This document shows positions 9,934 through 60,445 of a stretch of DNA of 64,000 nt, one piece after another. The stretch lies in IMG/VR virus record IMGVR_UViG_3300023296_001674; one strand, written 5' to 3'. The notes under the pieces were generated by a model. That model was not told the origin of the DNA. It saw only the letters and a program-made list of their open reading frames with translations, and searched no databases. Numbering within the stretch: position 1 is the stretch's first letter; each line of letters begins with the position of its first letter. Origin of the DNA: a virus. The translations under genes were made by a program, and so were the position numbers.

Positions 9934-11284
9934 TATGACATCAAGTGAATATATTTTAGATACATCAAAAGAATATTCTATATACACTTGCCACAAGCGC
10001 GGAATCCCAAGAGTCACCGATGGGCTAAAAAATGGTCAACGGCAAGCATTATGGCTTATTAGAAACAAAACAGAAAAAATAAAAGTTATTGCACTAGCGG
10101 GTGCAATGATTGAATCTGAATTATATCTTCACGGTGATAAATCTGCCGCTGATTCGATATCAAAACTTGCTGCACCTTTTTGTAATAACGTTCCTTATCT
10201 TGTTGGAAAAGGAAACTTTGGAACACGTGTATCACCCGTTGGTGGTATTGGTGCGCCAAGATATGTTTCAGTCAAAAAAGGCCAAGCAGTCGAACGGTTG
10301 ATATATCCTGATTTGGACATAGTTCCATTAATGGATAATCACGATGGTTCAACCAAAGAGCCTGAAACGTTCCTTCCTATCATTCCCACCGTTCTATTAA
10401 ATGGGGTAGCAGGAATTGCCGTAGGTTGGTCAACTGATATCCTGCCACATAAGTTAGAAGATTTAATAAAGGCTACCAAAGCAGCACTAGAAGGCAAGAA
10501 AGTGCCTAAATTGATACCATCATATGATTATTTTGATATCACAGTCAAAAAAGTTCCAGGTGTTGAAAATTCTTGGGAGTTTACTGGAAAAGTGGAAATC
10601 ATTAGCACAAGTGTCGCACGAGTTACCGAGTTACCGCCAGATTTGACATTAGAAAATTTTAGAGCACAGTTAGCACAAATGGAAGATAATGGCGCAATTA
10701 TGGATTATACTGACAAATCCACGAAAGCAATCAATATCGAAATTAAATTCAGACGTGGTTCACTTAAAGATATGTCACCTGAACAATTAATTGATACTCT
10801 TAAATTGAAATCTCGAAAAAAAGAACGCATCGTTGTTATTGATTGGGATGGACAAGCAATTCGCACATATGATAATCCCGAACAAGTTGTGGTTGATTTT
10901 GTTGCGTGGAGATTTACAAAATATATTGAACGTTATGAAAAATTGCGAGATGTAACTAATAGTGAAATAAAATTTTGGAAGGGTGTGCAAATGTGCTATC
11001 TTGATGATCTACCAGATAGATTAACAAAAATGGCAAACAAAGCGGAAATGGACAAAGAAATTCAAGATATAACAAAATCAGTCAAATTATCTGACGCACA
11101 GATTGATCGTATTTCGAATTTTGCATCATATAGATGGACTAAAGATGGATATAAACAATGTGTTGAAAAAATACATGAATTAGAACAACAATATAAAGAA
11201 TATATTAGATTGTTAAAAAATCCTGATGATATCAAAGATATTTTCATTGAAGAAATAGATGCATTAAAAAAGGTTAAGTTCTAA
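9893..11284 (+). CDS. 52: DNA topoisomerase II medium subunit (T4 gp52-like, GyrA-N-like, active-site Tyr region)
   Basis: CHKRGIPRVTDGLKNGQRQALW (cf. GyrA RAIPDVRDGLKPVQRR) and an APRYVSVKK Tyr motif. True start may be an internal ATG at 9914, 9923 or 9935; 9935 would just clear the upstream stop. Confidence 0.75.
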   Translation: MEQILQEMKYMRRDMTSSEYILDTSKEYSIYTCHKRGIPRVTDGLKNGQRQALWLIRNKTEKIKVIALAGAMIESELYLHGDKSAADSISKLAAPFCNNVPYLVGKGNFGTRVSPVGGIGAPRYVSVKKGQAVERLIYPDLDIVPLMDNHDGSTKEPETFLPIIPTVLLNGVAGIAVGWSTDILPHKLEDLIKATKAALEGKKVPKLIPSYDYFDITVKKVPGVENSWEFTGKVEIISTSVARVTELPPDLTLENFRAQLAQMEDNGAIMDYTDKSTKAINIEIKFRRGSLKDMSPEQLIDTLKLKSRKKERIVVIDWDGQAIRTYDNPEQVVVDFVAWRFTKYIERYEKLRDVTNSEIKFWKGVQMCYLDDLPDRLTKMANKAEMDKEIQDITKSVKLSDAQIDRISNFASYRWTKDGYKQCVEKIHELEQQYKEYIRLLKNPDDIKDIFIEEIDALKKVKF

Positions 11285-11526
11285 TGAGCGATCCACACAA
11301 ATATATAATAACATATGGGCCATGCACGGGCAATCCATCCAATCATTTAAATTTTCAAAAAAAACATGACGGAAATAAAGTGAAAGAAATAAATGACACA
11401 CATGGATTGAATGTCAAAGTTGAATATGATATGGAATTTCATGGTAATGATCTTCATACACTTACCGTTATATACAGTTCGGATGAAGAATCAGATTTGG
11501 TTGCATTTAAATTGTTAACAATATGA
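11284..11526 (+). CDS. small protein, divergent member of the AFKL(R/K)W C-terminal family (ends ...VAFKLLTI)
   Basis: C-terminal DLVAFKLLTI. ATGA-type overlaps with both neighbours. Confidence 0.4.
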   Translation: MSDPHKYIITYGPCTGNPSNHLNFQKKHDGNKVKEINDTHGLNVKVEYDMEFHGNDLHTLTVIYSSDEESDLVAFKLLTI

Positions 11527-11786
11527 CATTTGAAATAATAGATGCAGATGGTACCAAACCGCAATATATCGACGGCAAAGAAATATATGGATGCACACAT
11601 TATGTTGATTTTGACGGATATGTAAAAGACAAATATGATTGGATGCTTGACAATGTTGCCTTATGGTATTATGATGTTCAGCACGAGCCAATGGATAGAA
11701 ACGGTGATTGTGGCGGTGGTGAATTATTGACAATATATTTTACTACGATTGAAGACGCGATGGCGTTTAAATTAGCATGGACTTAA
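11523..11786 (+). CDS. AFKLRW-family small protein
   Basis: Internal DWMLDNV (W-x-x-x-N motif) and C-terminal EDAMAFKLAWT immediately before the stop. Confidence 0.5.
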   Translation: MTFEIIDADGTKPQYIDGKEIYGCTHYVDFDGYVKDKYDWMLDNVALWYYDVQHEPMDRNGDCGGGELLTIYFTTIEDAMAFKLAWT

Positions 11787-11790
11787 CGAA

Positions 11791-12039
11791 ATGGTGTTAA
11801 AGAATATGAAAAAACAATATGAATATATGTTTTATGGCGACAATTATGATTTCGAAGATGTTCGCGAAATAGAAGAATGGTGTGTGGAAAATATTGTTGA
11901 CATTAATGATTGGTGGTTTGATGAAAAAATAACAAGACATTCTGAAGGTATTAATTATATTGGCACTCAATATGAATATGTATTTGGCTTCAAACACGAT
12001 ACAGATGCAATGGCATTTAAAATATTATGGGTTTTTTAG
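11791..12039 (+). CDS. AFKLRW-family small protein
   Basis: EEWCVENIVD motif and C-terminal TDAMAFKILWVF-stop. Confidence 0.5.
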   Translation: MVLKNMKKQYEYMFYGDNYDFEDVREIEEWCVENIVDINDWWFDEKITRHSEGINYIGTQYEYVFGFKHDTDAMAFKILWVF

Positions 12040-12052
12040 AGAGGAATATATC

Positions 12053-12256
12053 ATGACAACTGCTACGAAAGAAGAACAAATAATGTCTGCTTTTTATCTT
12101 GTTGGTAATAACGATACCGAACATGATATTAGAGCATGGTGGAAACAATATGGTGATTTATACGACGAAGTATTTGCCGATGAAAATAACAGAAAACGAT
12201 CCCAAGAAATAGCCGATGAGTTATGGATTGAAAAATGTCCACTTGACAAATCATAA
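12053..12256 (+). CDS. hypothetical small protein
   Basis: Listed ORF 11960-12256 trimmed to ATG 12053, preceded by SD GAGAGGAA. Trp-rich (AWWKQYGDLYDE). Confidence 0.35.
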   Translation: MTTATKEEQIMSAFYLVGNNDTEHDIRAWWKQYGDLYDEVFADENNRKRSQEIADELWIEKCPLDKS

Positions 12257-12271
12257 ATAATGTAGTATAAT
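12243..12271 (+). promoter_or_regulatory. sigma70-type early promoter (TTGACA-N17-TATAAT) with TAATGTAGTAT word
   Basis: TTGACA at 12243-12248 and TATAAT at 12266-12271. SD AAGGACGG and ATG at 12302. Confidence 0.55.
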
Positions 12272-12301
12272 CAATACATTAACATAATAAAGGACGGCTT
12301 A

Positions 12302-15295: not shown

Positions 15296-15355
15296 GGTTT
15301 ATATACCTTGATATAATGTATTACTATACTTATTTAGTCTTTTTTATAGATAATG

Positions 15356-19596: not shown

Positions 19597-20229
19597 ATGC
19601 CAAATACACTAGATGAATGCGCCACCATTGAACAAGTTGCCGAGTTTTATGAAACAAATACGGGAGATGAAGATTTTGACACTGATGTTGTTTATCGCAT
19701 GGCTGAAATTTCGGCTGAAACAGACGAAAATTTAGATAATTCATTAAGTTACCGAAATATGATGATCGGTGCGGATGAATACTGTGAACAACTTATCGGT
19801 GAGATCAATGAAGCAATTGCCGCGTTAGATGAAGCATATGATGCCGAACAATGGGATCAATTAACCGATGACATATTTACTGATTGGGAAAGCGATGAAG
19901 CAATGTCTGATGCCGCAGCGGAAATCGACGATGTAAACAACCTACTACACGACTTTAAAGGATATCTTAATGATATCGGCGAATCAGTAACTGGTTTGTA
20001 TGGCTCCGATTTTGATTTCGGATTCGGCGACATGATGAATGAATCATTTTTTGGTGACTTTTGGGGAACCGAAATGAACATGAATAAAATCCAACAATCA
20101 CAAGACGAAATGGTATTGCTGTTAAATCGCATCATCAATGCACAAGAGAAATTTGTCGATAATTTAGATGATATTGAAACAGAAATTCAAGATCACGTTA
20201 ATGGTGTTTGGGACGATATCGCTGCGTAA
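19597..20229 (+). CDS. highly acidic protein (DNA-mimic candidate)
   Basis: 210 aa with very high D/E content throughout (EDFDTD, DEAYDAEQWDQLTDD, ESDEAMSD). Strong SD. Confidence 0.45.
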   Translation: MPNTLDECATIEQVAEFYETNTGDEDFDTDVVYRMAEISAETDENLDNSLSYRNMMIGADEYCEQLIGEINEAIAALDEAYDAEQWDQLTDDIFTDWESDEAMSDAAAEIDDVNNLLHDFKGYLNDIGESVTGLYGSDFDFGFGDMMNESFFGDFWGTEMNMNKIQQSQDEMVLLLNRIINAQEKFVDNLDDIETEIQDHVNGVWDDIAA

Positions 20230-22517: not shown

Positions 22518-22594
22518 GGGCGTGTATTCCAACCGGTAGAGAAACGAGACTTAAAATCTCGACAGTGTGGGTTCGAATCCCACCACGCCTACCA
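22518..22594 (+). tRNA. tRNA with anticodon UAA (Leu by anticodon) but short 5-nt variable loop (class I architecture); CCA encoded
   Basis: Hand-folded cloverleaf: acceptor GGGCGTG/CACGCCT (G1-U72 wobble); D-loop with GG; anticodon stem CGAGA/TCTCG; loop CUUAAAA; T-arm GTGGG-TTCGAAT-CCCAC; discriminator A then CCA. Confidence 0.7.
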
Positions 22595-22598
22595 CATA

Positions 22599-36574: not shown

Positions 36575-36618
36575 ACAGTGTGTTATTATATATAAAATAA
36601 CATAATGGAATATTATAA

Positions 36619-38535: not shown

Positions 38536-38564
38536 TTGACAAATATGCATTATTGACGTATATT
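38536..38564 (+). promoter_or_regulatory. sigma70-type promoter (TTGACA-N17-TATATT)
   Basis: TTGACA at 38536-38541 and TATATT at 38559-38564. A TTG (38553) or ATG (38571) start follows. Confidence 0.5.
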
Positions 38565-38570
38565 ATATCT

Positions 38571-39416: not shown

Positions 39417-39441
39417 CAAAATATAAGTGTTAAGTTATAGT
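39413..39441 (+). promoter_or_regulatory. sigma70-type promoter (TTGACA-N17-TATAGT) overlapping the dnaJ stop
   Basis: TTGACA at 39413-39418 and TATAGT at 39436-39441. The def gene starts at 39474. Confidence 0.4.
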
Positions 39442-39473
39442 TAGTTAATAGTTAATAGCACATAGGATGAAAT

Positions 39474-40004
39474 ATGATAGAAATTGTTTTAGAAGATGAT
39501 CCAGCATTAAAAATTGTTGTGCCACTATATGATTTTGACGAGCCGTTGAATATTGTAACTACACAAGATGAATTCGGTTTAACTGAATTCATTGATGCTA
39601 TGTTTGTGACCATGAAATTGAATAAAGGTCTCGGTTTGGCGGCTAATCAAATAGGACAAAACGTTCGCGTATTTGTTATGGATTTTTACGGCGAAGAATT
39701 TATTTGTATCAATCCAATAATTGAACAGTCATCAACAGAATTTACAATAGATCAAGAAGGCTGTTTAAGTTTTCCAGATTTATCATTAAATGTAAAACGA
39801 TCATCTGAAATATTTGTATCGTATTCAAATATCGATGGCGTTGAAATTCAAAGATGGTTATCTGGTATTACAGCTAGGTGTTTTCAACATGAACTAGATC
39901 ATTTGAATGGGATAACATTCGATTCACAAGTTGCAAAGCTAAGTTTAAAAATGGCTAAAGACAAAAGAAGAAAAAAAATAAAACAAAAACAAAGGAATAC
40001 CTAA
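39474..40004 (+). CDS. def: peptide deformylase
   Basis: Three PDF motifs: GLGLAANQIG (GxGxAAxQ), EGCLSFPD (EGCLS) and QHELDHLNG (HExxH). Confidence 0.8.
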   Translation: MIEIVLEDDPALKIVVPLYDFDEPLNIVTTQDEFGLTEFIDAMFVTMKLNKGLGLAANQIGQNVRVFVMDFYGEEFICINPIIEQSSTEFTIDQEGCLSFPDLSLNVKRSSEIFVSYSNIDGVEIQRWLSGITARCFQHELDHLNGITFDSQVAKLSLKMAKDKRRKKIKQKQRNT

Positions 40005-42263
40005 ATGCCTAACGGATTTGACCAACGACACATTTCTATAATGCTTCAAAAAGCAGTAACATTAGCAGAAAAATACGATCACATATATATAACATTAGAA
40101 CATATCAGTTTAGTATTACTGGATGATAAGTCCGTTGATCACGGTATTAAAGAATGCGGCGGCGACATAAAACTTATTAAAGAAATGGTTTTGACTGCAT
40201 TGTTAGATGAAGCAGATATAACTGAAGCAGGAACTGAGCCACAACCAACAAGAGCAGTCATCAATGTTATTCAACGGGCAATCCAGCATTCTGTTGGATC
40301 AGGCCGCAATACAGTTGAACCATTTTATCTTATGGCAAGTTTGTTAATGGAAAAAGATTCCGTTGCTGTATGGGCATTAGCACAACAAAATGTTGATCGT
40401 GTAAGTTTTATTAGAACTATAAATGTTCCACCATCAGGACAAAATAAAGGTGGCCCGATGAATGAACTCGATCCTATAACGGGTCAACCTATGCCACAAC
40501 CTGAAAATGCATTAAGAGATTATTGTGTTAATTTGAATGAAAAGGTAATTGCTGGTGATATTGATCCATTGATAGGTCGCGAAAAAGAAATTGAACGGTC
40601 ACTACAAGTTTTATCTAGACGACGCAAAAACAATCCATTGCTTGTTGGTGAGCCAGGAGTTGGTAAAACCGCTATTGCAGAAGGATTGGCATGGAAAATT
40701 GTTAATGAAACCGTGCCAAATTATATCAAAGATTCTATTGTATATTCGTTGGATATTGGTGCACTTATGGCTGGTGCCAAATTTCGCGGTGATGTCGAAG
40801 AACGATTAAAAGCGGTTCTTGCCGGATTGGAAGAAGTTGGCAAAACCAACAAAACCATATTATTCATTGATGAAATTCATACCATTATTGGTGCGGGTGC
40901 TACATCAGGTGGAAGTATGGATGTTAGTAACCTATTGAAACCCGCACTTGCTGCTGGTTCATTACGTTGCATGGGTTCCACCACATATGCTGAATATAAT
41001 AAGTATTTCGAAAAAGATGCGGCACTTAAGCGTCGTTTCAAAAAAATTGATATTATTGAACCTACTGTTGATGAAACAAAAACTATTATCAAAGGTTTGG
41101 CAAAATATTTTGCTGAGTATCATGAAGTTAAATTCACAAAAGAAGCATTAATGAGTGCAGTTGATTTATCCGTTAAGCATATACACGATAACAAACTTCC
41201 AGATAAAGCGATTGATGTTATTGATGAGGCGGCGGCAGCACAAAGATTATTCGATGGCGAAGATCGCCTTGAAATCATTGATGTTAAACAAATTGAAGAA
41301 ACCGTTGCAAAGATTGCAAGGATTTCTATTGATGCAACATCAAAAACCGACAAAGATAGATTGCGTAACCTTGCAGAAAATCTAACAACACATGTGTTTG
41401 GTCAAGAAGAAGCGATTGATGTTCTAACCAAGGCAGTTAAATTAAGCAAATCTGGATTGCGTGAAGAAAATAAACCGATTGGTAATTTCTTATTCAGTGG
41501 ACCTACAGGCGTAGGTAAAACCGAAGTTGCAAAACGTCTTGCCGATGAACTAGACGTTCCGTTGGTGCGATTTGATATGTCTGAATATATGCAAAAGCAC
41601 GAAGTGTCTAAACTTATTGGATCGCCACCTGGTTATGTTGGTCATGATGATAGTGATGGATTTTTAATTGAAGAAATTGATAAGCATAATTATTGTGTTT
41701 TATTGTTAGATGAAATCGAAAAAGCACACCAAGATATATTCAACGTTCTGTTACAAGTTATGGATAATGCAACACTAACCGGTGGTCGCAATAAAACAGT
41801 GCGCTTTGACAATGTTATAATCATCATGACATCAAATGCTGGTGCATCAGACCTTGCAAAAGAAGTTATGGGATTTGGCAACGAAGAGCGAGTTGGCGAT
41901 GATCTTATAGCCATCGAAAAATTATTTACACCTGAATTTAGAAATCGTTTGGATAAAATCGTTGGATTTAAACCATTACAACAAGAAATAATGAATAAAG
42001 TTGTTGTTAAATTTATAAAACAATTGAAAGTTCAACTTAAAACACAGGATGTTAAACTTACGTTGATGAAGAAAGCCATTGAGTGGCTTGCCGTTAAAGG
42101 ATACAGTTCCAAATATGGAGCACGACCACTTTCGCGTGTAATAGACAATCATATCAAGCAGCCAATATCTGAAGAGTTATTATTTGGTCAACTTGAAAAT
42201 GGTGGTTCAGTTAAAATTGACATCGTTGAAGACGAACTTGAATTCACTTACAAACCAAAATAA
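40005..42263 (+). CDS. clpA: ClpA-like double-ring AAA+ unfoldase (Clp N-domain, D1, D2; no ClpB middle domain)
   Basis: Collinear with E. coli ClpA: [44 protein letters not shown] (D1), [14 protein letters not shown]2 Walker [33 protein letters not shown] tripeptide sits at the IGL-loop position. Confidence 0.85.
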
Positions 42264-44745: not shown

Positions 44746-44769
44746 GATTCCGAACGTATGTTAACAAAA

Positions 44770-46066: not shown

Positions 46067-46291
46067 TTAGCCCCAGCGTAGCTTAAAAGCCATCGCTGAT
46101 TCAAGATTAAAAAATAAAACACCAGTGGAACACATGCATGCACCACTGGTGTATCCATCTAAAATAAAATCTTCTTTTACTTTTAGATTTTCAAATAACC
46201 AATTATCTATAAATTTTTCAGATATCACTGTATCATATTCAAAATATAAATCACTTGTTCTTCTTATTTTATAAAATTCTTCTACAGCCAT
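46067..46291 (-). CDS. AFKLRW-family small protein
   Basis: DNWLFENLKV motif and C-terminal ESAMAFKLRWG-stop. First of five tandem minus-strand paralogues. Confidence 0.5.
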   Translation of the reverse strand: MAVEEFYKIRRTSDLYFEYDTVISEKFIDNWLFENLKVKEDFILDGYTSGACMCSTGVLFFNLESAMAFKLRWG

Positions 46292-46488
46292 CTCATTTTG
46301 AATCCCATTGAATCTTCTTCATCTAACAACCAGACCACCGATGATGGTGGTTTTCGGACATCGGCAGAATCACATATGGCATAACTGTCTTCATCGATAT
46401 TGTCGATCAGCCATAGTTTAACTTCATCCATTTCGTTGTTGGAAATATAGAATTTTGTGTTGTTTATTTGACGTATTTTCATATCCAT
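46282..46488 (-). CDS. AFKLRW-family small protein
   Basis: [10 protein letters not shown] motif and C-terminal [11 protein letters not shown]-stop. 10-nt overlap with neighbours. Confidence 0.5.
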
Positions 46489-46847
46489 CGTAATTTAAAT
46501 GCAACCACGTCGCTTTCATTATTGAATACAAATTTATACGTTAAATTATTTCGTTTGTCTTCAGTATAAGACCGGACGTAATATTCTTCAACGTTTTCTT
46601 TGAGCCACTCATTCATGTTATTTACCGTGACTTCATCATAGTTTTGCAACAACGCATAATATGATTGCTGTTCAACAATTTCAAATGATGGCTCCAATGA
46701 TTTAGACTGAACTGTGTGTATCGTTTCACTGCATATATCAACGCATTCATTGCAAATATATACATCTACACTAGCAATTAAATGTTTTACTTGCGATTGA
46801 TCTTTTTTACAAAATGAACATGTAGGTACTTTATTTTTTATAGCCAT
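46479..46847 (-). CDS. AFKLRW-family small protein with N-terminal CxxC zinc-ribbon extension
   Basis: [10 protein letters not shown] motif and C-terminal [11 protein letters not shown]-stop. N-terminal CSFCKK...CNECVDIC. Confidence 0.5.
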
Positions 46848-47188
46848 TTTAATTTAAACGCTGTAACGTCTTCCTTGCATGTAAAGGTGAATTCAACGGT
46901 ATTAGTGCCGTTGATCGAATAATTGGTTTTGTTTTCAAATATGTATACTATATCATTATCCACGCACCAATCATCTATTAAATCAACGCCGTCTGCAATC
47001 ATGGCTGAATATACGTCATACGTTACAATAAATTTATACTTAAAAAATTTTTCTACTTGAGAATGAAAGCCAACTATATCATTTAATAACGTAATATTTG
47101 TTGGATTGTTTATTTTTTTAGTATCGACATCAAAATCTTGTAATATTTCAAATAATACTGCTTTGCGTAATGTATCTATATCATTCAT
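46838..47188 (-). CDS. AFKLRW-family small protein
   Basis: [10 protein letters not shown] motif and C-terminal [11 protein letters not shown]-stop. Confidence 0.5.
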
Positions 47189-47207
47189 AATACTCGCCCA
47201 TTATTTA

Positions 47208-47555
47208 TTATATCCATCTTAATTTAAACGCCATCGCAGATTCTTTGTCATCATAAAACAACACTTCTATTTCTACCATTCCATTATCATCTTCGTCCCA
47301 ACCAGACCAATCCCAACGCCAATCACTAGTGCAATTTTCAAGCAACCAATCATGTTCTTCGTGATTGTTAAAATCCCATTCTTCACTAACTTTCGTTCCG
47401 TTTTTTTCACGACGTGGTGGATTTATTTTTGTCCCTGATATTTTAATATTAACTGTATTTTCGGATATGATCGATTTGTTATATGATGGCGTCGGTATAG
47501 ACGCTGTCGATACTTCTAATGTATATTTTCTACCACAATGAATATCGCCTTCCAT
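47208..47555 (-). CDS. AFKLRW-family small protein
   Basis: Listed ORF (to 47711) trimmed to internal ATG 47555 (MEGDIHCGRKY), which has SD AAGAGA and leaves room for the divergent promoter. HDWLLENCTSDW motif and C-terminal ESAMAFKLRWI-stop. Confidence 0.45.
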   Translation of the reverse strand: MEGDIHCGRKYTLEVSTASIPTPSYNKSIISENTVNIKISGTKINPPRREKNGTKVSEEWDFNNHEEHDWLLENCTSDWRWDWSGWDEDDNGMVEIEVLFYDDKESAMAFKLRWI

Positions 47556-47627
47556 GATTAATCTCTTTTTAATTGTTAATACTTTTTCAGTATAATACCA
47601 AATATATACTGATAATGTCAATATCTC

Positions 47628-47655
47628 TTGACATACATTAATGATGTGATATAGT
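47628..47655 (+). promoter_or_regulatory. sigma70-type promoter (TTGACA-N16-TATAGT)
   Basis: TTGACA at 47628-47633 and TATAGT at 47650-47655. SD AAAGGA; ATG at 47688. Confidence 0.45.
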
Positions 47656-48431: not shown

Positions 48432-48483
48432 TTGATTAATGTGTTATTATTCTATATGAAACATATAGAAAAGGATTATCGCT

Positions 48484-49371: not shown

Positions 49372-50673
49372 ATGACACATATATCGTTATATAATAGCAT
49401 GTCGAGAGAAAAAGAAAAATTCAAACCAATAGACGATTCTCGCGTAACTATGTATTATTGCGGTATCACCCCTTATGATAAACCACATCTTGGTAACGTA
49501 AGAGCGAGTATCACTGGTGATATGATATATAGACTGTTGCGGGTTTTTTATAAATCAGAAAATGTCATATATGCTAGAAATATTACTGACATAGATGATA
49601 AAATCGAAGCAAAAAGCCAAGAAACAGGAAGGTCTGCGATTGATATAACGAATGAAACTATTCAATGGTTTCATGAAACTATGAAAGTATTACATGTATT
49701 GCCACCGGATTTGGAGCCAAGGGTTTCTGATAATGAAGAATCTATGATGGATATGATTAACATATTACTTGATAAAAATATCGCATATAAATCAAATAAT
49801 GGTGACATTTATTTTGAATTAGATAAATTTCCAGAACACGGAAAATTATGCCGCCACAGTCGCGAAGATTTAAATATAAATGAAGAACATTCTTCAGAAA
49901 AAAAACATCCACAAGATTTTGTTTTATGGAAAGAAAATCATCAACGATTTGGTTGGCATATTGAATGTTCCGCGATGATTAAAAAGCATTTGGGTGACAC
50001 TATCGATATTCATGGTGGTGGTGGTGATTTACGTTTCCCACATCATGAGAATGAAATAGCTCAAAGTGAAACTGCTAATGGTGTCCCATTGGCTAATTAC
50101 TGGATGCATAACGGTATGATTACAGTGAACGGAAAGAAAATGGCTAAATCTACTGGAAGCTTTATTACAGTCGATGAAGCACTAGATCGTGTTCCCGGCG
50201 AAGCGATACGATTTTACATGCTTAAGACGCATTACCGTAAACCGTTTGATTGGTCGTGGGATGGTTTGATGGAAGCCAAGTCTGAACTTGATGGGTTATA
50301 TAGAAAGATGCAGAAACGCACTTATGTTAAAATGGGTGGCGTGTCAGTACAAGTATTATATGCGTTGGCTGATGATTTGAATACACCATTGGTGATATCA
50401 GAATTATACAAAGAAGCGGATAAGGAAATATCTTCTTTATTGGATTCGGCGCAGCTATTGGGTATACTGAATCATACACCAGAAGAATGGTTTCATGGCA
50501 CAACGAAAGATTCATTACTTGATGCATCGTCAATCGAGGCACTTATTGAAGTACGGAAACTATTGAAAGAAAATGGCGACTATGAATCTGCGGATATAAC
50601 AAGAGATATATTATTAGGACAAGGCATTATACTTGAAGATAAACCAGATGGGACAACTTGGCGAAAAATATGA
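49372..50673 (+). CDS. cysS: cysteinyl-tRNA synthetase
   Basis: Collinear with E. coli CysRS: YYCGITPYDKPHLGNVR (HIGH-type motif reads HLGN), NITDIDDKI, WHIECSAM, IHGGGGDLRFPHHENEIAQS, KMAKSTG (KMSKS), C-terminal ILEDKPDGTTWRK. Zn-ligand Cys/His positions are conserved. Confidence 0.85.
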   Translation: MTHISLYNSMSREKEKFKPIDDSRVTMYYCGITPYDKPHLGNVRASITGDMIYRLLRVFYKSENVIYARNITDIDDKIEAKSQETGRSAIDITNETIQWFHETMKVLHVLPPDLEPRVSDNEESMMDMINILLDKNIAYKSNNGDIYFELDKFPEHGKLCRHSREDLNINEEHSSEKKHPQDFVLWKENHQRFGWHIECSAMIKKHLGDTIDIHGGGGDLRFPHHENEIAQSETANGVPLANYWMHNGMITVNGKKMAKSTGSFITVDEALDRVPGEAIRFYMLKTHYRKPFDWSWDGLMEAKSELDGLYRKMQKRTYVKMGGVSVQVLYALADDLNTPLVISELYKEADKEISSLLDSAQLLGILNHTPEEWFHGTTKDSLLDASSIEALIEVRKLLKENGDYESADITRDILLGQGIILEDKPDGTTWRKI

Positions 50674-50921
50674 TTATAACACAACAAACTAATAGTCTAG
50701 ATGAGTGTAGATATGTATGTTTGGACGACAATCAAAATCTTACAGAATTAATGGATTTACTATATTGGCTGTCTGAAAATTGTTATAGAGTGCCAGGATT
50801 GGAATGGGTGTTTAGACGATTGGATCGATATAATCAAATAATTATCACATTTGGTTTTAATTCATTAAGTGATTGTTATAATGATGAATATCATATGGCA
50901 TTCAAGTTAAAATGGTTGTAG
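50658..50921 (+). CDS. AFKLRW-family small protein
   Basis: LYWLSENCYR motif and C-terminal YHMAFKLKWL-stop. Overlaps the cysS 3' end by 16 nt. Confidence 0.5.
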   Translation: MAKNMIITQQTNSLDECRYVCLDDNQNLTELMDLLYWLSENCYRVPGLEWVFRRLDRYNQIIITFGFNSLSDCYNDEYHMAFKLKWL

Positions 50922-52080: not shown

Positions 52081-52329
52081 ATGTGTAATCCATATATAAA
52101 AATATTTGAATATATCATGGATACACAATATTCAGAGATATATAAATGGTTGCGCAATCACGGCGAAGATGGTATAGATTGGTGCATAGAAGACTACAAT
52201 CAACAATATGTAATCAATGGTATGGATAATAACGTGAGTGTGGAATGTGATATGGTTGTAAAAATATATAATATTGATGTAGCGGCAGTTTTTGAAATGG
52301 AGCAAGTTGGTGGGCATAATGGAAAATAA
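52081..52329 (+). CDS. hypothetical small protein, possible degenerate AFKLRW-family member
   Basis: YKWLRNHGEDGIDWCIEDY (W..N/WC.E-like) and C-terminal DVAAVFEMEQVGGHNGK, which lacks the K-L-R-W end. Confidence 0.3.
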   Translation: MCNPYIKIFEYIMDTQYSEIYKWLRNHGEDGIDWCIEDYNQQYVINGMDNNVSVECDMVVKIYNIDVAAVFEMEQVGGHNGK

Positions 52330-52540
52330 AAATAGACATATATCAGAAACAGGGCGTCATATTCTTGAAACACATCCATATGTAGTTGAGAATATTGATG
52401 ACAGCGATTGTTTTGTTGATATCATATATTGGACACGGGCGGTGTTTGGTGGTAAGGAAGAACGGGTAATAACATGTTGGAATAATTATTATTTTAGACA
52501 TGAAGTCGATTGTTTTAATTTTAAAATGAGGTGGTTGTAA
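52292..52540 (+). CDS. AFKLRW-family small protein
   Basis: C-terminal VDCFNFKMRWL-stop. Overlaps the dephospho-CoA-kinase-like gene start. Confidence 0.45.
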   Translation: MKWSKLVGIMENKNRHISETGRHILETHPYVVENIDDSDCFVDIIYWTRAVFGGKEERVITCWNNYYFRHEVDCFNFKMRWL

Positions 52541-53333: not shown

Positions 53334-53936
53334 ATGCAGTTTCCATTCATCAAATCAAATGTAACATTGGGGCTATTCATGAAAAATGAATATGTCAAAG
53401 TGAAATCACGATATACCAAATTATATGAACTTGCGAGACATTATTGGTTTGAATTGGTTTGTTTATCTATTTTAATGATGGTTATTATATCAAGTATGGA
53501 TAAAACATATACGCCAGTGGTTATAACACCAGTAGGTGTGGAAACAACATCAAACACTATCGCCGTTCAACCATCAAATACATACATTGATTTAAATTCA
53601 ATTGTGCGATATAAATCGACGATGATGGACAATGAAACTGTTGGTGATATAGAACGGCACGATCTTATTAATGCGCATGAAAACAAGTTTGTTGGTCAAC
53701 GTATAATTCACACTGGCAAACTTGATATAATAGATACAAAATATGATCATTATGCATTATATATATCAACCGCCAGTATATATGATGACGCGAAGTGTAA
53801 AATTGATATAGATGATAAAAAAATAATATATACACTACGCGAGGACGCAATTGTAACTATAAAAGGGTCAATTGAAGAAATCACGTTCAATTATAATATT
53901 GCAGATTGCGTTGTTGTGATGCCTGATGAAAAATAA
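53334..53936 (+). CDS. membrane protein (single TM)
   Basis: Listed ORF 53292-53936 trimmed to ATG 53334, after the basic ORF stop. TM segment HYWFELVCLSILMMVIISS. Confidence 0.4.
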   Translation: MQFPFIKSNVTLGLFMKNEYVKVKSRYTKLYELARHYWFELVCLSILMMVIISSMDKTYTPVVITPVGVETTSNTIAVQPSNTYIDLNSIVRYKSTMMDNETVGDIERHDLINAHENKFVGQRIIHTGKLDIIDTKYDHYALYISTASIYDDAKCKIDIDDKKIIYTLREDAIVTIKGSIEEITFNYNIADCVVVMPDEK

Positions 53937-54190
53937 TGAGTGATGAAAAATCTATATTTCATGACGTTGAAGAATCCAACACCGACGTGGGAATTGAGTA
54001 TACACTTTGGGGAAGTTATGATATAATCATCGAAGTTATGAATTGGCTACATGAACATTATCCATCGACGTGGGGAATTGAATGGACTGTCGATCATCAT
54101 AATAGACACGACGCGATAAACGTTGTATTCAATTTAAAAGAATGCAATACTGATGCAGCACTTATGGGGTTTAAATTGAGATGGTTGTAA
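53936..54190 (+). CDS. AFKLRW-family small protein
   Basis: MNWLHEHYPSTWGIEW motif and C-terminal AALMGFKLRWL-stop. ATGA overlap upstream. Confidence 0.5.
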   Translation: MSDEKSIFHDVEESNTDVGIEYTLWGSYDIIIEVMNWLHEHYPSTWGIEWTVDHHNRHDAINVVFNLKECNTDAALMGFKLRWL

Positions 54191-54570
54191 AAAATTTTAT
54201 AGCATTGCCACACGATCCGTATTTTTCTAATGTAGTAATAACTAATAGAGAGCCGGATAAAATGAGAGTGTATATACAACATAAAGGAGCAACGCCGTAT
54301 AATAATCAATCACATACAACATTATCTATATTGGCTACATCTGTTTATGTAATAGAATTAAACACCATGCCAATAGCAAAATATGTTTTTATAATGTTGT
54401 ATCATTCAGATGTCATATTGATAAAAAATTTTGTTAAACAAAACAACCTTGCTTGTTCGTTTTCAACGGGAAAAATTATAAAGGATCGAAATAATAATAA
54501 AAAGACTGGTTATCTATGTTCTACTAATGATGAAACCGCCGCAATGGCTATTAAAATGATGTGGAGTTGA
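54181..54570 (+). CDS. AFKLRW-family small protein (divergent end ...AMAIKMMWS)
   Basis: C-terminal ETAAMAIKMMWS-stop. 10-nt overlap with the upstream paralogue. Confidence 0.45.
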   Translation: MVVKNFIALPHDPYFSNVVITNREPDKMRVYIQHKGATPYNNQSHTTLSILATSVYVIELNTMPIAKYVFIMLYHSDVILIKNFVKQNNLACSFSTGKIIKDRNNNKKTGYLCSTNDETAAMAIKMMWS

Positions 54571-54573
54571 ATA

Positions 54574-54849
54574 ATGAAAATTAACTGCGTGGAAAAAATG
54601 GATCATAAACCGGCATATGAAACTGTTGATGTTTGTAATGACGGAATACAGGTACATATAATAAAACAGTGCCCGGCAAAATATACATGTTTGTTTCCTA
54701 CTAGAAATGAGGCAATTATTTTTATTCGTGAATTGAAAAAAATACCAAGTATTGATTATCAACAGTATCATTTGGGTGATAGAAATCTATTGGAAGTTAA
54801 TATTCATTCGAAAGACGCATTATTTTTGTTTTCATTGAGATGGTTATAA
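54574..54849 (+). CDS. AFKLRW-related small protein, SLRW subfamily
   Basis: C-terminal KDALFLFSLRWL-stop. First of three tandem SLRW-type paralogues. Confidence 0.45.
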   Translation: MKINCVEKMDHKPAYETVDVCNDGIQVHIIKQCPAKYTCLFPTRNEAIIFIRELKKIPSIDYQQYHLGDRNLLEVNIHSKDALFLFSLRWL

Positions 54850-54850
54850 T

Positions 54851-55129
54851 ATGTCAATACATATAGAATGCGTAAATCGAATGATTGAACGACCTGTATT
54901 CGTAGACATCGAAACTGTTGGTGGTAGAGGTGTTATAATACAAGACCAGCATGATTCGATACCAGCAGAATTTAATATATTTTCAGATACGAATAAAGAG
55001 TTGCATAAAATAATGAATGAAATATCACGTATGCATGGTGTAACAATTACAGATACTCGTGATCTCTGGGCAACTATTAATGTTAATACAAAAGAATCAT
55101 TGCTTTTGTTTTCATTGAGGTGGCGGTAA
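54851..55129 (+). CDS. AFKLRW-related small protein, SLRW subfamily
   Basis: C-terminal KESLLLFSLRWR-stop. Shares VPAEF(N/I) and HxxxxxxVxT with its neighbours. Confidence 0.45.
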   Translation: MSIHIECVNRMIERPVFVDIETVGGRGVIIQDQHDSIPAEFNIFSDTNKELHKIMNEISRMHGVTITDTRDLWATINVNTKESLLLFSLRWR

Positions 55130-55130
55130 T

Positions 55131-55412
55131 ATGACGGAATTGTATATACATCAAACTGTGCGGATGCACCATAAGCCATCATTTGAACAATACAACACCT
55201 TGGGTGGTGGTGGTTACATCAATTATACGAATGAGTTTGTACCAGCAGAATTTATTTGCAACGCAGATGATTCTGCAACATTACTTGCGTTTATAGACGA
55301 GTTGAGAATATTACCCGGTCTTCAAGTTGACAGAGAGCATCATCAATCTGAGATTACCGTTAAAATTCATTCAAAAGAAACATTATTAATATTTTGGTTG
55401 AGGTGGATGTGA
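55131..55412 (+). CDS. AFKLRW-related small protein, SLRW subfamily
   Basis: C-terminal KETLLIFWLRWM-stop. FVPAEFICN matches the previous paralogue. Confidence 0.45.
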   Translation: MTELYIHQTVRMHHKPSFEQYNTLGGGGYINYTNEFVPAEFICNADDSATLLAFIDELRILPGLQVDREHHQSEITVKIHSKETLLIFWLRWM

Positions 55413-55570
55413 TGTTATATAGATTTAAAGATATGGACGTTAAGCCGGATGAAAACATAAAAGAATGGTGCAATGAAAATTTAACAGACGGTGAAGTAGA
55501 ATTTGGTGCTACTACCATTTACATACAATCGGAGATAGATGCAATGGCGTTTGAATTAAGATGGATTTAA
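55412..55570 (+). CDS. AFKLRW-family mini-protein (52 aa); missed by the 60-aa cutoff
   Basis: MLYRFKDMDVKPDENIKEWCNENLTDGEVEFGATTIYIQSEIDAMAFELRWI-stop contains both the WCNEN and AMAFxLRWI signatures. TGATG overlap with the upstream gene. Confidence 0.45.
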   Translation: MLYRFKDMDVKPDENIKEWCNENLTDGEVEFGATTIYIQSEIDAMAFELRWI

Positions 55571-56425: not shown

Positions 56426-57643
56426 ATGAATGACCATCGCGAGATTGCTACAGCTTTAGACTTATTTCATTTTGAGGAGCATTCACCAGGAATGGTATAT
56501 TGGCATCCTGAAGGGTTTAAATTATATCGAACCATAGAAGAATATATGCGAAGCATGCATGAAAAATATGGATATAAAGAAATTAGAACACCAATAATGG
56601 TCAATAAATCTTTATGGAAATTGTCTGGTCATTGGGATAAATTTCAAGACAATATTTTTATTGCTGGTGAAATAGGTGAAGTAATAAGCGATGAGTTAAT
56701 TTATACTGACGGGCAATATGTAATGTCTCCGATGAATTGTCCAAATCATATACAAGTGTACCAAAAGGGAACAAAGTCTTACAAGATGCTACCTGATCGT
56801 TTATTTGAATTTGGTGTGGTGCATCGCAATGAACCATCTGGATCATTGGCTGGCATTATGAGATTGCGAAGTTTTACACAAGATGACTCGCATATACACT
56901 GTACTGAAGATCAAATTTTGAGTGAAACAACCAATTTTATCAATATGCTTCAAGAAGTTTATTCTAAGTTTGGGTTCAATGACGTCGCTGTAAAACTTGC
57001 CACTCGATGTGAAGAACGCATTGGCGACGATGCCAGTTGGGATAAAGCCGAGAAAGCATTAGAAGATGCTTGTATACATCTTGGATTGGAATACACAATT
57101 AATCCCGGTGAATCAGCATTCTATGGCCCAAAACTTGAGTTCACGCTACAAGATAGCCTTGGTCGTGATTGGCAATGTGGAACCATCCAGATTGATTTTA
57201 ACATGTGCGAACGATTGGGTGCTACATACATTGACGAAAATGGTGATAAGAAACATCCGGTATTGATTCACCATGCTGTATTGGGAAGTTTGGAACGCTG
57301 GGTTGGTGTATTGCTTGAGAACAGCAATGGTGAACTACCGTTGTGGCTTGCCCCTACACAAGTGGTTGTTGCCAGTATTACCAGTGATGTTAATGACTAT
57401 GCTGAAGAGAAAATGGTTACACTTAGTGGTATCGGATATCGAGTTGAGTTGGATGACCGAAATGAAAAAATCGGTAAGAAAATCAAAGACGCACAGAAAC
57501 GACGTATTCCATATATGCTTATTGTGGGTAAAAAGGAAAAAGAGAATCAAATGGTCAACGTTCGCAAATTGAACGGCGACCAAGATGATATGGAGTTGAT
57601 AGATTTTATAGGATCATTCGTCAAATCTACAAATGAAAGGTGA
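56426..57643 (+). CDS. thrS: threonyl-tRNA synthetase catalytic core + anticodon-binding domain, lacking the N-terminal TGS and editing domains
   Basis: Trimmed to ATG 56426 with SD GGAG. Starts at the class-II core (DHREIATALDLFHF.EHSPGMVYWHPEGFKLY, cf. E. coli ThrRS ~res 242 RDHRKLG..L.LF...). Class II motifs 2/3 and the C-terminal anticodon-binding fold are present. ~405 aa vs ~640 for full-length ThrRS. Confidence 0.8.
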   Translation: MNDHREIATALDLFHFEEHSPGMVYWHPEGFKLYRTIEEYMRSMHEKYGYKEIRTPIMVNKSLWKLSGHWDKFQDNIFIAGEIGEVISDELIYTDGQYVMSPMNCPNHIQVYQKGTKSYKMLPDRLFEFGVVHRNEPSGSLAGIMRLRSFTQDDSHIHCTEDQILSETTNFINMLQEVYSKFGFNDVAVKLATRCEERIGDDASWDKAEKALEDACIHLGLEYTINPGESAFYGPKLEFTLQDSLGRDWQCGTIQIDFNMCERLGATYIDENGDKKHPVLIHHAVLGSLERWVGVLLENSNGELPLWLAPTQVVVASITSDVNDYAEEKMVTLSGIGYRVELDDRNEKIGKKIKDAQKRRIPYMLIVGKKEKENQMVNVRKLNGDQDDMELIDFIGSFVKSTNER

Positions 57644-57836
57644 ACGTGTTTTTGATAAAATGAAACTCCCATATCCATGTTACGTTAATTATGGCGTTGA
57701 CCCAGATATGGTAATCGAATGGTGTGATGAGAATATCGAGTGTAAATGGGGGTATTTTCATCAAAATAACGGAACTCTTTATATATACATTACAGATGAT
57801 GTATATGGAATTGCATATAAGTTAAAATGGTCTTGA
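57633..57836 (+). CDS. AFKLRW-family small protein
   Basis: IEWCDENIECKW motif and C-terminal YGIAYKLKWS-stop. Overlaps the thrS 3' end. Confidence 0.45.
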   Translation: MKGERVFDKMKLPYPCYVNYGVDPDMVIEWCDENIECKWGYFHQNNGTLYIYITDDVYGIAYKLKWS

Positions 57837-59337: not shown

Positions 59338-59344
59338 TGAATGG

Positions 59345-59373
59345 TTGACATTATGTTGATTATGATTTATACT
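59345..59373 (+). promoter_or_regulatory. sigma70-type promoter (TTGACA-N17-TATACT)
   Basis: TTGACA at 59345-59350 and TATACT at 59368-59373. ATG at 59402. Confidence 0.5.
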
Positions 59374-59401
59374 CCATATTGTAATAATATAGGATACAAA
59401 A

Positions 59402-59752
59402 ATGCATAAACGAAATATACTCGACGAGCCATATTTTGCCAGAGAGCCTGATTGCAGAGGCGAAGGCGATGATGGCTATATCGGATTTGGCGCAGGTAGT
59501 GATTTTAATCGTGAAATAATCGAACCTGGAATTAACGATAATTATCCTGATGGTGTTGTTGGTGTTCGCATTGATGGTGATTATTGGGTGGTTGCTATTT
59601 TGCCGTATGAAACATATAAAGACGTCTCGATGCAGGACATTATTTCAGAATATTGGCCCGAGTTTACCGACGTCGTATGTAGGCCAGATAGTGGCGATCC
59701 ATGGTGGGACGATGTATATTGGAAGAGAGATTATAAAGATGGAGAAAAATGA
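59402..59752 (+). CDS. hypothetical protein
   Basis: 116 aa, acidic. Confidence 0.4.
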   Translation: MHKRNILDEPYFAREPDCRGEGDDGYIGFGAGSDFNREIIEPGINDNYPDGVVGVRIDGDYWVVAILPYETYKDVSMQDIISEYWPEFTDVVCRPDSGDPWWDDVYWKRDYKDGEK

Positions 59753-59753
59753 T

Positions 59754-60173
59754 ATGAGCGACACAGATGAAATAAGAACACCAGTAGAAAATATTGATGC
59801 AATTCTTGATGTCGACAATTATTTTAATTTGCAAGAAAAAATTCACAATTATTTTGGATATGTTGAAGATTGGAAAGTGATGGCATTGGTCGATCATCGA
59901 TCTGATTATTGGATATTACACGAAATTAAAAATGATGACGGTGAAACATATGGCGGCGAAGTTTTTTATCACGATGATCCATTTATAGATGGATATAAAA
60001 CCGAAGGAAATTACTACAGCGCAGTTCTTTATATGCAACGATTTCTTCCACAGTGGATATATCGTACAAAAGATTTTACCATGATTTGTATGGACACGCA
60101 ATGCGACGATAACAAATATATTGGTATATTTTCTAATATGAATGAACAACCAAATATAGTTCCATACGTATGA
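59754..60173 (+). CDS. hypothetical protein
   Basis: Listed ORF 59550-60173 trimmed to ATG 59754 (TGATATG junction with the upstream stop). Confidence 0.4.
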   Translation: MSDTDEIRTPVENIDAILDVDNYFNLQEKIHNYFGYVEDWKVMALVDHRSDYWILHEIKNDDGETYGGEVFYHDDPFIDGYKTEGNYYSAVLYMQRFLPQWIYRTKDFTMICMDTQCDDNKYIGIFSNMNEQPNIVPYV

Positions 60174-60445
60174 TAATACGTTATTCAGACTCTTCAAAAT
60201 TTTGGAGATATTTAACATTATTTATATTGCCAAAACATAAAGCACGTGTATATAATGCAACAGATGAGGAAATAAACGAGTTAAAAAAATGGCTGAGTGA
60301 TCAAAAAATATGGTTTTTTAGTAATAAAATAGATTACTACTCTGCTAAAAATGCGGATCATGCAAAATCATCCAAACCATTGATAACAATACATATTAGA
60401 GATGAAGAAGTATTGATGGGTATGAAATTGGCATGGGAAAATTAA
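60170..60445 (+). CDS. small protein, divergent AFKLRW-like end (...LMGMKLAWEN)
   Basis: C-terminal EEVLMGMKLAWEN-stop. ATGA overlap upstream. Confidence 0.35.
   Translation: MIIRYSDSSKFWRYLTLFILPKHKARVYNATDEEINELKKWLSDQKIWFFSNKIDYYSAKNADHAKSSKPLITIHIRDEEVLMGMKLAWEN

Follow-up and report, generated by a model that had tools for sequence, protein, structure and literature searches.

A 64,000-nt stretch of viral DNA, taken from the IMG/VR record IMGVR_UViG_3300023296_001674 and referred to below as the window, carries a numerous set of small genes whose products share a domain of about 55 residues ending in ...AFKLRW, for which the name FKLRW domain is coined here. These genes are genuine, significantly alignable paralogs, and the domain that they encode represents a real, large and previously undescribed phage domain family. 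As to its function, our preferred but tentative reading, to which we assign a probability of about 0.4, is that the members are small acidic intracellular protein-binding effectors, which are built on one conserved mini-scaffold and have been amplified by tandem duplication.

A regular-expression scan of all six frames returned 17 open reading frames (ORFs) of at least 40 aa that end in [FY][KESW][LMI][RKAQL]W plus 0-3 residues, whereas in 50 shuffled versions of the window such ORFs number 0.04 on average and never more than 1. A seed hidden Markov model (HMM) made from the last 65 residues of these 17 ORFs, and hence circular for its own seeds, recovered all of them at E 1e-10 to 1e-20, and added 60170-60445 at 3e-6 together with the weak candidates 52081-52329, 54181-54570 and 11284-11526. 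The window was then re-searched with an external HMM comprising 149 domains from non-window proteins only. This profile detected 15 members with E values under 1e-8 and 60170-60445 with 5e-6; the three genes ending in L(F/L)(L/I)F(S/W)LRW scored 7e-4 to 2e-3, 11284-11526 and 52081-52329 reached a marginal 0.03-0.04, and 54181-54570 was unmatched at E up to 0.1. The best E in the reversed-sequence control was 0.41. The family in the window is made up of 18 solid and 3 marginal members, which occupy 5,685 nt, or 8.9% of its length. An initial annotation of this DNA had described at least 21 ORFs between positions 11284 and 60445, covering about 8% of the window, with an internal W-(C/L)-x-(E/D)-N box and a conserved C-terminal motif. 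Its coordinates are right, the strings that it quoted for both motifs are all found in the translations, and its suspicion of a true family is borne out, as the significant HMM alignments and the shuffled controls speak against a compositional artefact. The members are listed below, with orthologs from, among others, L101, a 256.8-kb contig syntenic with the window between 34.8 and 59 kb.

11284..11526, plus strand: marginal member, 80 aa, ending ...LVAFKLLTI, without the terminal W and the WxxEN box; seed HMM E 0.18, external HMM E 0.04; first of three genes between two topoisomerase II subunit genes
11523..11786, plus strand: member, 87 aa, ...AMAFKLAWT; external HMM 5e-12; ATGA overlap with the upstream gene
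11791..12039, plus strand: member, 82 aa, EEWCVEN ... AMAFKILWVF; external HMM 3.6e-15; ortholog P0056, 58% over 74 aa
42460..42783, plus strand: member, 107 aa, LEWCQEN ... AAAFKLQWN, a long insertion separating helix 1 from strand 3; external HMM 5e-9; L101 ortholog at the same place after clpA, 62.7% identity over 102 aa
42774..42977, plus strand: member, 67 aa, IIWCKEN ... FAFKLRWV; external HMM 2.8e-16; start codon within the Q-W codons of the upstream member; L101 ortholog, 60%
46067..46291, minus strand: member, 74 aa, DNWLFEN ... AMAFKLRWG; external HMM 3e-11; 10-nt overlap with the upstream member; final gene of a five-gene minus-strand array
46282..46488, minus strand: member, 68 aa, KLWLIDN ... 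MGFKMRWL; external HMM 3.5e-15; sequence used for structure modelling; orthologs P0059 (52%) and in L101 (40% identity)
46479..46847, minus strand: fusion, 122 aa, ClpX-type C4 zinc-binding domain (residues 9-44) plus family domain (NEWLKEN ... VVAFKLRWI); external HMM 1.5e-16
46838..47188, minus strand: member, 116 aa, DDWCVDN ... VTAFKLKWL; external HMM 3.3e-13; 55-aa N-terminal extension with no Pfam match
47208..47555, minus strand: member, 115 aa from ATG 47555 (as also in the public gene call P0017; the longest ORF extends to TTG 47711), HDWLLEN ... AMAFKLRWI; external HMM 7.4e-12; first gene of the minus-strand array
50658..50921, plus strand: member, 87 aa, LYWLSEN ... HMAFKLKWL; external HMM 3.3e-12; overlaps the end of the cysteinyl-tRNA synthetase gene
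52081..52329, plus strand: doubtful or degenerate member, 82 aa, IDWCIED ... AAVFEMEQVGGHNGK, C-terminal motif lost; external HMM 0.027; L101 ortholog at 42% identity, likewise unrecognised by the HMM
52319..52540, plus strand: member, 73 aa (ATG 52319, as in the public gene call P0015) or 82 aa (TTG 52292), ...CFNFKMRWL; external HMM 1.5e-11
53936..54190, plus strand: member, 84 aa, MNWLHEH ... LMGFKLRWL; external HMM 9e-12; ortholog P0005, 73%
54181..54570, plus strand: marginal member, 129 aa, ...AAMAIKMMWS; seed HMM 0.16, over the C-terminal 30 aa only; start codon within the R-W codons of the upstream member
54574..54849, plus strand: divergent subclade, 91 aa, ...LFLFSLRWL, without the WxxEN box; seed HMM 1e-10, external HMM 7e-4
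54851..55129, plus strand: divergent subclade, 92 aa, ...LLLFSLRWR; seed HMM 3e-11, external HMM 8e-4
55131..55412, plus strand: divergent subclade, 93 aa, ...LLIFWLRWM; seed HMM 7e-13, external HMM 2e-3
55394..55570, plus strand: member, 58 aa from TTG 55394, the 52-aa form from ATG 55412 being more likely (TGATG overlap with the upstream stop), KEWCNEN ... AMAFELRWI; external HMM 6e-13; L101 ortholog, 68%
57633..57836, plus strand: member, 67 aa, IEWCDEN ... IAYKLKWS; external HMM 9e-12; overlaps the end of the class II tRNA synthetase gene; ortholog at the same L101 position, 55% identity
60170..60445, plus strand: divergent member, 91 aa, KKWLSDQ ... LMGMKLAWEN; seed HMM 3.4e-6, external HMM 5e-6; alignment over the full domain

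The family is not a named one, as had been supposed from the letters of the DNA. Library scans covered the ten strongest window members (Pfam, PHROGs), ten external consensus-type members, three members from Pseudomonas phage PA5oct and four from Sinorhizobium phage Phosso, and gave no family match for the FKLRW domain in Pfam-A, PHROGs v4 or NCBIfam. The PDB is likewise without a counterpart, a sequence profile search yielding chance matches only (e.g., Rab-9 at E 0.035), and a Foldseek search against viral models returned uncharacterised phage proteins only, the best at E 0.019, and nothing specific. The string 'FKLRW' is not used for a family in the literature searched, and a comparative review of jumbo phages does not mention the FKLRW family (PMC7824862). 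The DUF4379 treble-clef repeats (PF14311) gave no match in the family members scanned against Pfam. One candidate, P0036, was rejected as a member, because it is a six-repeat DUF4379 protein that matched the profile solely via a repeated 'LETWCKEN' segment; the 'WCKEN' contained in DUF4379 repeats is the cause of this single listed false positive. The window itself encodes a DUF723/DUF4379 treble-clef zinc-finger protein (14165-15295, minus strand), which is kept in L101 (668-1756, minus strand) at 37% identity.

Beyond the window, an exhaustive profile search of 1.84 billion cluster representatives (50% identity clusters) found 915 matching proteins at E up to 1e-3, nearly all of 52-180 aa and with the domain at the extreme C-terminus. 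A word-indexed search with the consensus alignment returned 1,188 clusters (90% identity) at E up to 1e-5, and among the matches listed none has a precomputed Pfam domain or an informative name; a word-indexed protein search with the window alignment had returned the window's own proteins and one ortholog only, the proteins listed there being likewise free of precomputed Pfam domains. Loci were collected by scanning for the peptide DAMAFKL(R), which gave 6 IMG/VR and 80 metagenome loci, i.e., 86 independent loci with a total of 430 kb, many of the retrieved metagenome loci coming from marine-sediment assemblies. In these 86 loci the external HMM identified 693 family ORFs. At least two copies are present in 88 of 90 loci (the 86 independent ones plus L001 and L008-L010), and the copies are co-oriented in 69 of the 78 independent loci that have at least three. 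The density of the arrays rises to 2-4 genes per kb, which is saturation, as in L016 (29 in 12.6 kb) and L013 (29 in 15 kb), and in some contigs of 5-15 kb nearly 100% of the coding capacity is given to the FKLRW domain. With more than 900 clusters at 50% identity, and far larger arrays elsewhere, the expansion is no peculiarity of the phage of the window.

The family spans many phage lineages, with GC contents from 30% to 52%. None of 185,579 bacterial and archaeal genomes matched the narrow DAMAFKLR pattern, which divergent cellular members could escape, and the family thus appears, so far, to be restricted to phages. Among cultured phages, Phosso carries about 14-17 copies within the first 28 kb and at least about 20 in the 87 kb examined, and PA5oct has three in the 190 kb scanned; in both phages they are annotated merely as hypothetical. 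The PA5oct members, with coordinates in L009, are as follows.

19947..20162: member, gp247
36114..36371: member, gp274
36532..36753: member, gp275

A note of detection by electrospray ionisation tandem mass spectrometry (ESI-MS/MS) is carried by 93 PA5oct virion proteins (PMC7318152). In the PA5oct record, no such note is attached to gp247, gp274 or gp275, and many of their neighbours have one, which is weak evidence, from one phage, against a place in the virion.

The domain was modelled with AlphaFold2 on two unrelated members. The first model, of the member 46282-46488 (68 aa, 18-sequence alignment), has a predicted local distance difference test score (pLDDT) of 86 and a predicted template modelling score (pTM) of 0.70, with strands at residues 10-15, 35-39 and 48-53 and helices at 19-29 and 56-66 of 67 residues. 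The second, of the C-terminal domain of the unrelated protein P0155 (60 sequences), has an identical order of elements at pLDDT 92-95; a model of the entire P0155 tandem (pTM 0.47), whose N-terminal copy lacked alignment depth, is uninformative on domain-domain contacts. In these models, the FKLRW domain is a 55-residue beta1-alpha1-beta2-beta3-alpha2 unit, i.e., a predicted ferredoxin-like fold minus its last strand. It shares with small ferredoxin-like alpha/beta domains (ACT, PII-like, KH, RRM) the two-layer sandwich in which an antiparallel sheet has both helices on the same side. A KH domain was considered and rejected, since its beta-alpha-alpha-beta-beta-alpha order with a GXXG loop between the helices is not that of the FKLRW domain.

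The W-C/L-x-E-N box forms the C-terminal end of helix 1 in the models, and (E/D)DAMAFKLRW makes up all of helix 2, at the terminus of the protein. The information of the profile is concentrated at W15, C16, E18, N19, W25, F42, M49, F51, K52, L53, R54 and W55, the positions between these having less than 1 bit each. Conservation is highest at, among others, the F, L and W of the motif and the helix-1 W, as a small aromatic core would predict; the aromatics (helix-1 W, the W after helix 1, strand-3 F, and helix-2 F/L/W) probably constitute the core of the domain, and helix caps and salt bridges are the probable roles of the conserved E, N, D, K and R. Insertions and deletions are located in the N-terminal parts and in the stretch from helix 1 to strand 3. 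The members are acidic, with a median isoelectric point of 4.8 and a net charge of -5 in the window, and of 5.05 and -3 outside. Several external members are tandem two-domain proteins, a few show hydrophobic N-terminal segments by eye, and several N-terminal 'extensions' are degenerate extra copies of the domain; Pfam was blank for the N-terminal extensions of five external members (161-198 aa) and for five small window neighbours.

The models bear directly on a proposal that goes back to the initial annotation: the aromatic/basic peptide at the C-terminus would be a free tail for docking to one shared partner (the sliding clamp, ClpA/ClpX or another protease) or, in an extension of the idea, a degron, and would serve to recruit the protein or to time its destruction. 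The position of the motif is in line with such a role, as the end of the domain lies 0-1 residue from the stop in 583 and 0-3 residues from it in 622 of the 644 ORFs that match to the end of the profile, the last residue is mostly L, I, V or M, and in the tandem proteins P0087, P0140 and P0062 the internal motif is degenerate and the terminal copy is of consensus type. Against this, both models are helical up to the W at pLDDT 90-95, with the motif packed as helix 2 of a compact domain and one residue free after it; the tandem proteins P0014, P0098 and P0155 have a perfect internal motif; and there are variants that end differently, ...FKLTWGG(x) in GC-rich contigs and ...FRLRFGL in L004. To our knowledge, the motif resembles neither clamp-binding motifs nor the C-degrons of ssrA or MuA, which also counts against a free tail, and nothing in the analysis, which took in no clamp gene, links the family to a sliding clamp. 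The models hence set this proposal aside, and we regard it as highly improbable.

The history of the arrays can be read from the comparison with L101. For the window members, orthologs occur there in corresponding positions; they are 40-68% identical along the entire protein, including the N-terminal parts, and other orthologs reach 45-73%. These values are close to those of the housekeeping neighbours, which have 51-76% identity overall (against L101: ClpA 70%, class II synthetase 72%, cysteinyl-tRNA synthetase 59%, deformylase 62% and DnaJ 51%). The paralogs are thus old and individually maintained, with no conspicuous acceleration relative to their neighbours. At the 40-73% protein identity of the closest orthologs, saturation of synonymous sites is to be expected. 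The N-termini, which had been called hypervariable, are so between paralogs; between orthologs they are conserved along with the rest of the protein. The likening of the family to a diversifying arsenal is not supported, since ortholog identities close to those of neighbouring genes give no sign of unusually fast diversification. Expansion of copy number was rightly perceived, and growth by tandem duplication is supported.

In L101, the DnaJ-deformylase-ClpA operon runs into a contiguous nine-gene array on one strand, with the zinc-binding-domain fusion among its genes. The window retains two members after clpA, and the rest of the array has been split off and differs partly in content: the fusion-bearing half (46067-47555) is inverted relative to L101 and has two extra members. 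A 61-aa ORF between clpA and the first member (42278-42463) does not belong to the family, yet it is 67% identical at the same place in L101. A homologue of the anti-Pycsar protein Apyc1 (43044-43823), an N6/N4 methylase (45276-46064) and four small ORFs separate the two halves of the array, at window 43044-46064 as compared with L101 10001-11140. For the block of five genes at 53936-55412, the 20 kb of syntenic L101 sequence that were examined contain no equivalent.

A further array site lies between topoisomerase II subunit genes. In the contigs L002 and L005, an array of 10-15 members occupies the same place as the three copies at window 11284-12039. The topoisomerase-flanked arrays extend over 9893-14182 in the window, 4519-12392 in L005 and 6029-13641 in L002, in phages of 35% and 52% GC; the order of the topoisomerase II subunit genes is reversed between the window and L002/L005. 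Judged by gene order, the interval between the topoisomerase II genes is apparently a recurrent hotspot of insertion or expansion, and its occupation in the window as well as in L002/L005 leads us to suggest that arrays grow at a few permissive sites between conserved genes.

Such turnover could also be expected if the genes were selfish or near-neutral filler, i.e., small ORFs spread by tandem duplication or by mobile endonucleases with little benefit to the phage. The highly variable copy number, the changes of gene content between relatives, and the presence of members at the 3' ends of many unrelated operons are compatible with this explanation, as is the GIY-YIG/NUMOD3 endonuclease that abuts one array. 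It is nevertheless improbable in view of the strong protein-level conservation with the same domain boundaries in more than 900 clusters, of the orthologs kept in place at 40-68% identity, and of the conserved fusion to a zinc-binding domain; furthermore, the endonuclease is absent from L101, where the flanking members are present. The endonuclease-like gene itself (55573-56295, minus strand) has a family member on one side and the class II tRNA synthetase gene on the other.

The members are tightly packed. At five junctions the (R/K/Q)-W codon pair of the upstream gene (xxA-TGG) contains the ATG of the downstream gene, which produces 10-nt overlaps (starts at 42774, 46291, 46488, 46847 and 54181), so that the DNA encoding the motif partly doubles as the translation start of the next gene; other junctions are ATGA or TGATG overlaps. 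This arrangement implies that the genes are, as predicted from their sequence, translationally coupled. A strict search for sigma-70-type sites (TTGACA-N16-18-TAnnnT) found 23 of them against 4.9 expected from shuffles, 22 on the plus strand (e.g., at 12243-12271, 15289-15317, 42981-43009, 47628-47655 and 48423-48450), and the majority stand just upstream of predicted gene starts in the ORF list; a loose-stringency sigma-70 scan showed no excess (37 vs 37.7). The single strict site on the minus strand lies upstream of the five-gene minus-strand array.

47592..47621, minus strand: putative sigma-70-like promoter, TTGACA-18-TATTAT with TG, 11/12 consensus match

As this site falls inside the longer ORF of 47208-47555, it favours the start at 47555. 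The region is probably transcribed by the host RNA polymerase, as far as these promoter-like sites indicate.

One member deserves particular attention with respect to the Clp proteases. The initial annotation had noticed a CxxC motif in one protein, which is the fusion 46479-46847, and the motif belongs to a ClpX-type C4 zinc finger: the N-terminus matches PF06689 with 56.9 bits against a cut-off of 27 (E 1.9e-15, residues 9-44 corresponding to profile positions 2-38 of 39), and residues 6-52 match TIGR00382 (clpX) at E 1.1e-11. The protein was rejected as a full-length ClpX unfoldase, since it has 122 aa, scores 44.5 against a TIGR00382 cut-off of 370.75, and has an FKLRW domain as its C-terminal half. 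Seven further homologues are built in the same way; for six of these the identity is 50-64% and the alignment takes in at least 93% of the protein. PF06689 was precomputed on all eight proteins returned, the query included; more divergent, independent fusions are found inside the arrays of L012 and L019. In addition, the main array of the window is preceded by the following operon.

38553..42263, plus strand: operon before the main array, consisting of a DnaJ-like gene (38553-39416), peptide deformylase (39474-40004) and a ClpA-like AAA+ unfoldase (40005-42263)

The ClpA-like assignment is based on the Pfam domains AAA_2, ClpB_D2-small and AAA_lid_9, with Clp_N at E 3.2e-7 and no stretch of it passing alone; DnaJ (51%) and the deformylase (62%) were assigned via the L101 genes that have those Pfam domains. 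The window ClpA is 42-45% identical to ClpA of the jumbo phages Phosso, Atu_ph07 and PA5oct, and the DnaJ-ClpA arrangement is common to all four. A further ClpA match, in L096 (CAKLQF020000008.1, 'Acinetobacter phage MD-2021a'), stands in a record of the phage collection that resembles a bacterial chromosome, with clpS-clpA amid ilvA, rpiA, argC, aroF and fadH; because of this gene set, the L096 match is taken as cellular and not phage.

These observations suggest that the FKLRW proteins could be Clp-linked adaptors or anti-adaptors, in which the invariant face of the helix pair or the free C-terminus would dock onto the phage ClpA or the host ClpX, ClpA or ClpP, the variable parts would bring or block substrates, and the fusion would supply the substrate- and adaptor-recognition domain of ClpX in trans. 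The fusion of a conserved ortholog group to a bona fide ClpX zinc-binding domain speaks for such a role, and the genomic setting adds to it: an array follows clpA in L101 (nine genes including the fusion) as well as in the window (two members), and in L076 a probable ClpA C-terminus (36% over 44 aa, E 3e-4, a weak match) opens the contig, ahead of an array of 11 genes. The three PA5oct members are all situated in the stretch at 165-182 kb with ClpX, ClpS, FtsH and ClpP, which also holds S21 and a heat-shock protein; two of them are just downstream of clpP, and none is in the highly transcribed early terminal-repeat region. Overall, a Clp gene or fusion is present in 6 of the 22 independent loci of at least 6 kb, and a common interaction is suggested by the conservation of residues of surface type and by the strict placement of the motif at the C-terminus. 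On the other hand, members stand equally often beside topoisomerase II subunits (window, L002/L005) and tRNA synthetases (window, L101). When all large window proteins were compared by BLAST with the independent loci, topoisomerase II subunits were found to flank arrays at least as closely as Clp genes, and it is for this reason that we keep the Clp adaptor as an alternative and not as the best explanation. Moreover, no strong members are found beside clpA in Phosso or Atu_ph07, the zinc-binding domain may be a mere dimerisation module, and the motif is modelled as a packed helix. The idea of a Clp partner, already present in the initial annotation, is therefore hinted at by the fusion and by the main array beside clpA, but the adjacency to Clp genes is no stronger than that to topoisomerase and tRNA-synthetase genes, and we consider the adaptor explanation unlikely on balance. 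Its most far-reaching form, in which the FKLRW domain would serve for docking to Clp-family AAA+ proteases and huge phages would possess a massively diversified repertoire of degradation adaptors or anti-adaptors, is a distinctly unlikely one.

The tail of SspB is a short C-terminal peptide after a disordered linker, and binds the ClpX zinc-binding domain in an extended conformation. A ClpX-tethering tail of this type was rejected for the FKLRW motif, since the models show it not as a disordered tail but as a helix (residues 56-66 of 67, pLDDT ~90) that belongs to a compact domain. Points in common with the ClpX zinc-binding domain and with Clp adaptors such as SspB and ClpS are the one conserved member with a true ClpX-type domain and the location of the main array after a phage clpA. 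The FKLRW proteins differ from SspB, ClpS and MecA-like adaptors in that the FKLRW domain has no sequence similarity to these (Pfam and NCBIfam being blank) and in that its terminal motif is helical and packed. Gp53 of SPO1 is a phage-encoded modulator of Clp. Related jumbo phages encode ClpA, ClpX, ClpP and ClpS (PMC7824862).

A further reading to be weighed is a ligand- or nucleic-acid-binding module, whose conserved aromatic and K/R cluster would have RNA, DNA or a nucleotide signal as its ligand and might act, for instance, as a sponge for a second messenger of host defence. Nucleotide stacking and phosphate contacts typically involve residues such as the conserved W, F, K and R, and the anti-Pycsar Apyc1 homologue adjoins two members. 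The acidity of the proteins disfavours general nucleic-acid binding, dozens of distinct paralogs per genome fit a single ligand poorly, and Apyc1 is an insertion that is absent from the syntenic L101 site; we thus assign to such a module a very remote likelihood.

Protein-binding effectors remain our preferred reading. According to this model, soluble and mostly acidic effectors would be made from host-type promoters, and each paralog would bind a different protein partner, which it may inhibit, sequester or redirect. Binding would take place via those parts that vary between paralogs, namely the N-terminal extension, the beta2-beta3 hairpin and the face of the sheet, and the conserved helix pair would keep a very small protein folded. 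New members would arise by tandem duplication at the few permissive sites, would be translationally coupled, and would then be retained as distinct orthologs. Several points weigh against this model. Motif burial, partner binding, the timing of expression and the effect on the host are all steps that we infer, burial of the motif being deduced from modelled secondary structure and helix periodicity. Many members (52-68 aa) consist of the domain alone and offer little variable surface, and the signature of an arms race appears to be missing, as orthologs are not unusually fast. In addition, the conserved E/N/K/R (2.2-2.4 bits) and the near-absolute C-terminal position exceed what a scaffold needs. 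This constraint hints at a shared function of the conserved face or of the free C-terminus; as it is left unexplained by the effector model, it is the main reason to consider a common partner.

Expansions of small proteins are known from other viruses. Bacillus phage G has a zinc-ribbon family of ~35 copies (PMC7824862). The FKLRW family resembles such jumbo-phage expansions in its dozens of small paralogs, its location in accessory regions and its presumed role in host interaction or regulation, and differs from the zinc-ribbon family in its beta-alpha-beta-beta-alpha order, the lack of a metal site, its separate sequence family and its occurrence in many lineages. The ankyrin-PRANC/F-box proteins of poxviruses and the BTB/F-box proteins of giant viruses combine a conserved C-terminal module that binds a hub with a variable N-terminus. 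These families have in common with ours an invariant C-terminal module, variable N-termini, many paralogs and tandem arrays; theirs, however, are adaptors of the eukaryotic ubiquitin system with unrelated folds, and many FKLRW members are domain-only.

With regard to its genomic context, the window has a GC content of 35% and nearly all of its genes on the plus strand. Its proteins are found on a 570,750-bp public contig, which indicates a huge phage, and a megablast of 8 kb of the window against cultured phages gave no match, i.e., no close cultured relative. The genes of the window include A- and B-type subunits of topoisomerase II, the ClpA-like unfoldase, cysteinyl- and class II tRNA synthetases, the Apyc1 homologue, two N6/N4 DNA methylases, dephospho-CoA kinase and a PcfJ-like protein. 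At 31740-34956, the gene for an AAA ATPase of 640 aa precedes that for a DUF6638 protein (E 6e-100). Genes for tRNA-Leu(UAA) and tRNA-Arg(UCU) stand side by side at 22518-22676; they serve A-ending codons, which are presumably frequent in an AT-rich genome.

The recognition of the FKLRW family turns more than 1,000 orphan ORFs into one testable unit, whose boundaries are defined and whose fold is confidently modelled, with KFEIDEEEIDEIKEWCKENIGEEDWTFSNSDRGSNNSITIYFKNEEDAMAFKLRWL as the HMM consensus and the ClpX zinc-binding domain as a recurring fusion partner. Huge phages spend a visible share of their coding capacity on this domain, whose members are annotated only as 'hypothetical protein', and gp247, gp274 and gp275 of PA5oct as well as the Phosso copies provide handles in cultured phages. 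Should the Clp docking reading be true, the family would be the bacterial-virus counterpart of the F-box/PRANC expansions of eukaryotic viruses, and the fusion would lend the recognition domain of ClpX in trans to the phage ClpA. If the FKLRW proteins are binders of host proteins or Clp adaptors, they would constitute a large new toolbox of small inhibitors and would offer a new view of how jumbo phages remodel the proteostasis of their hosts.

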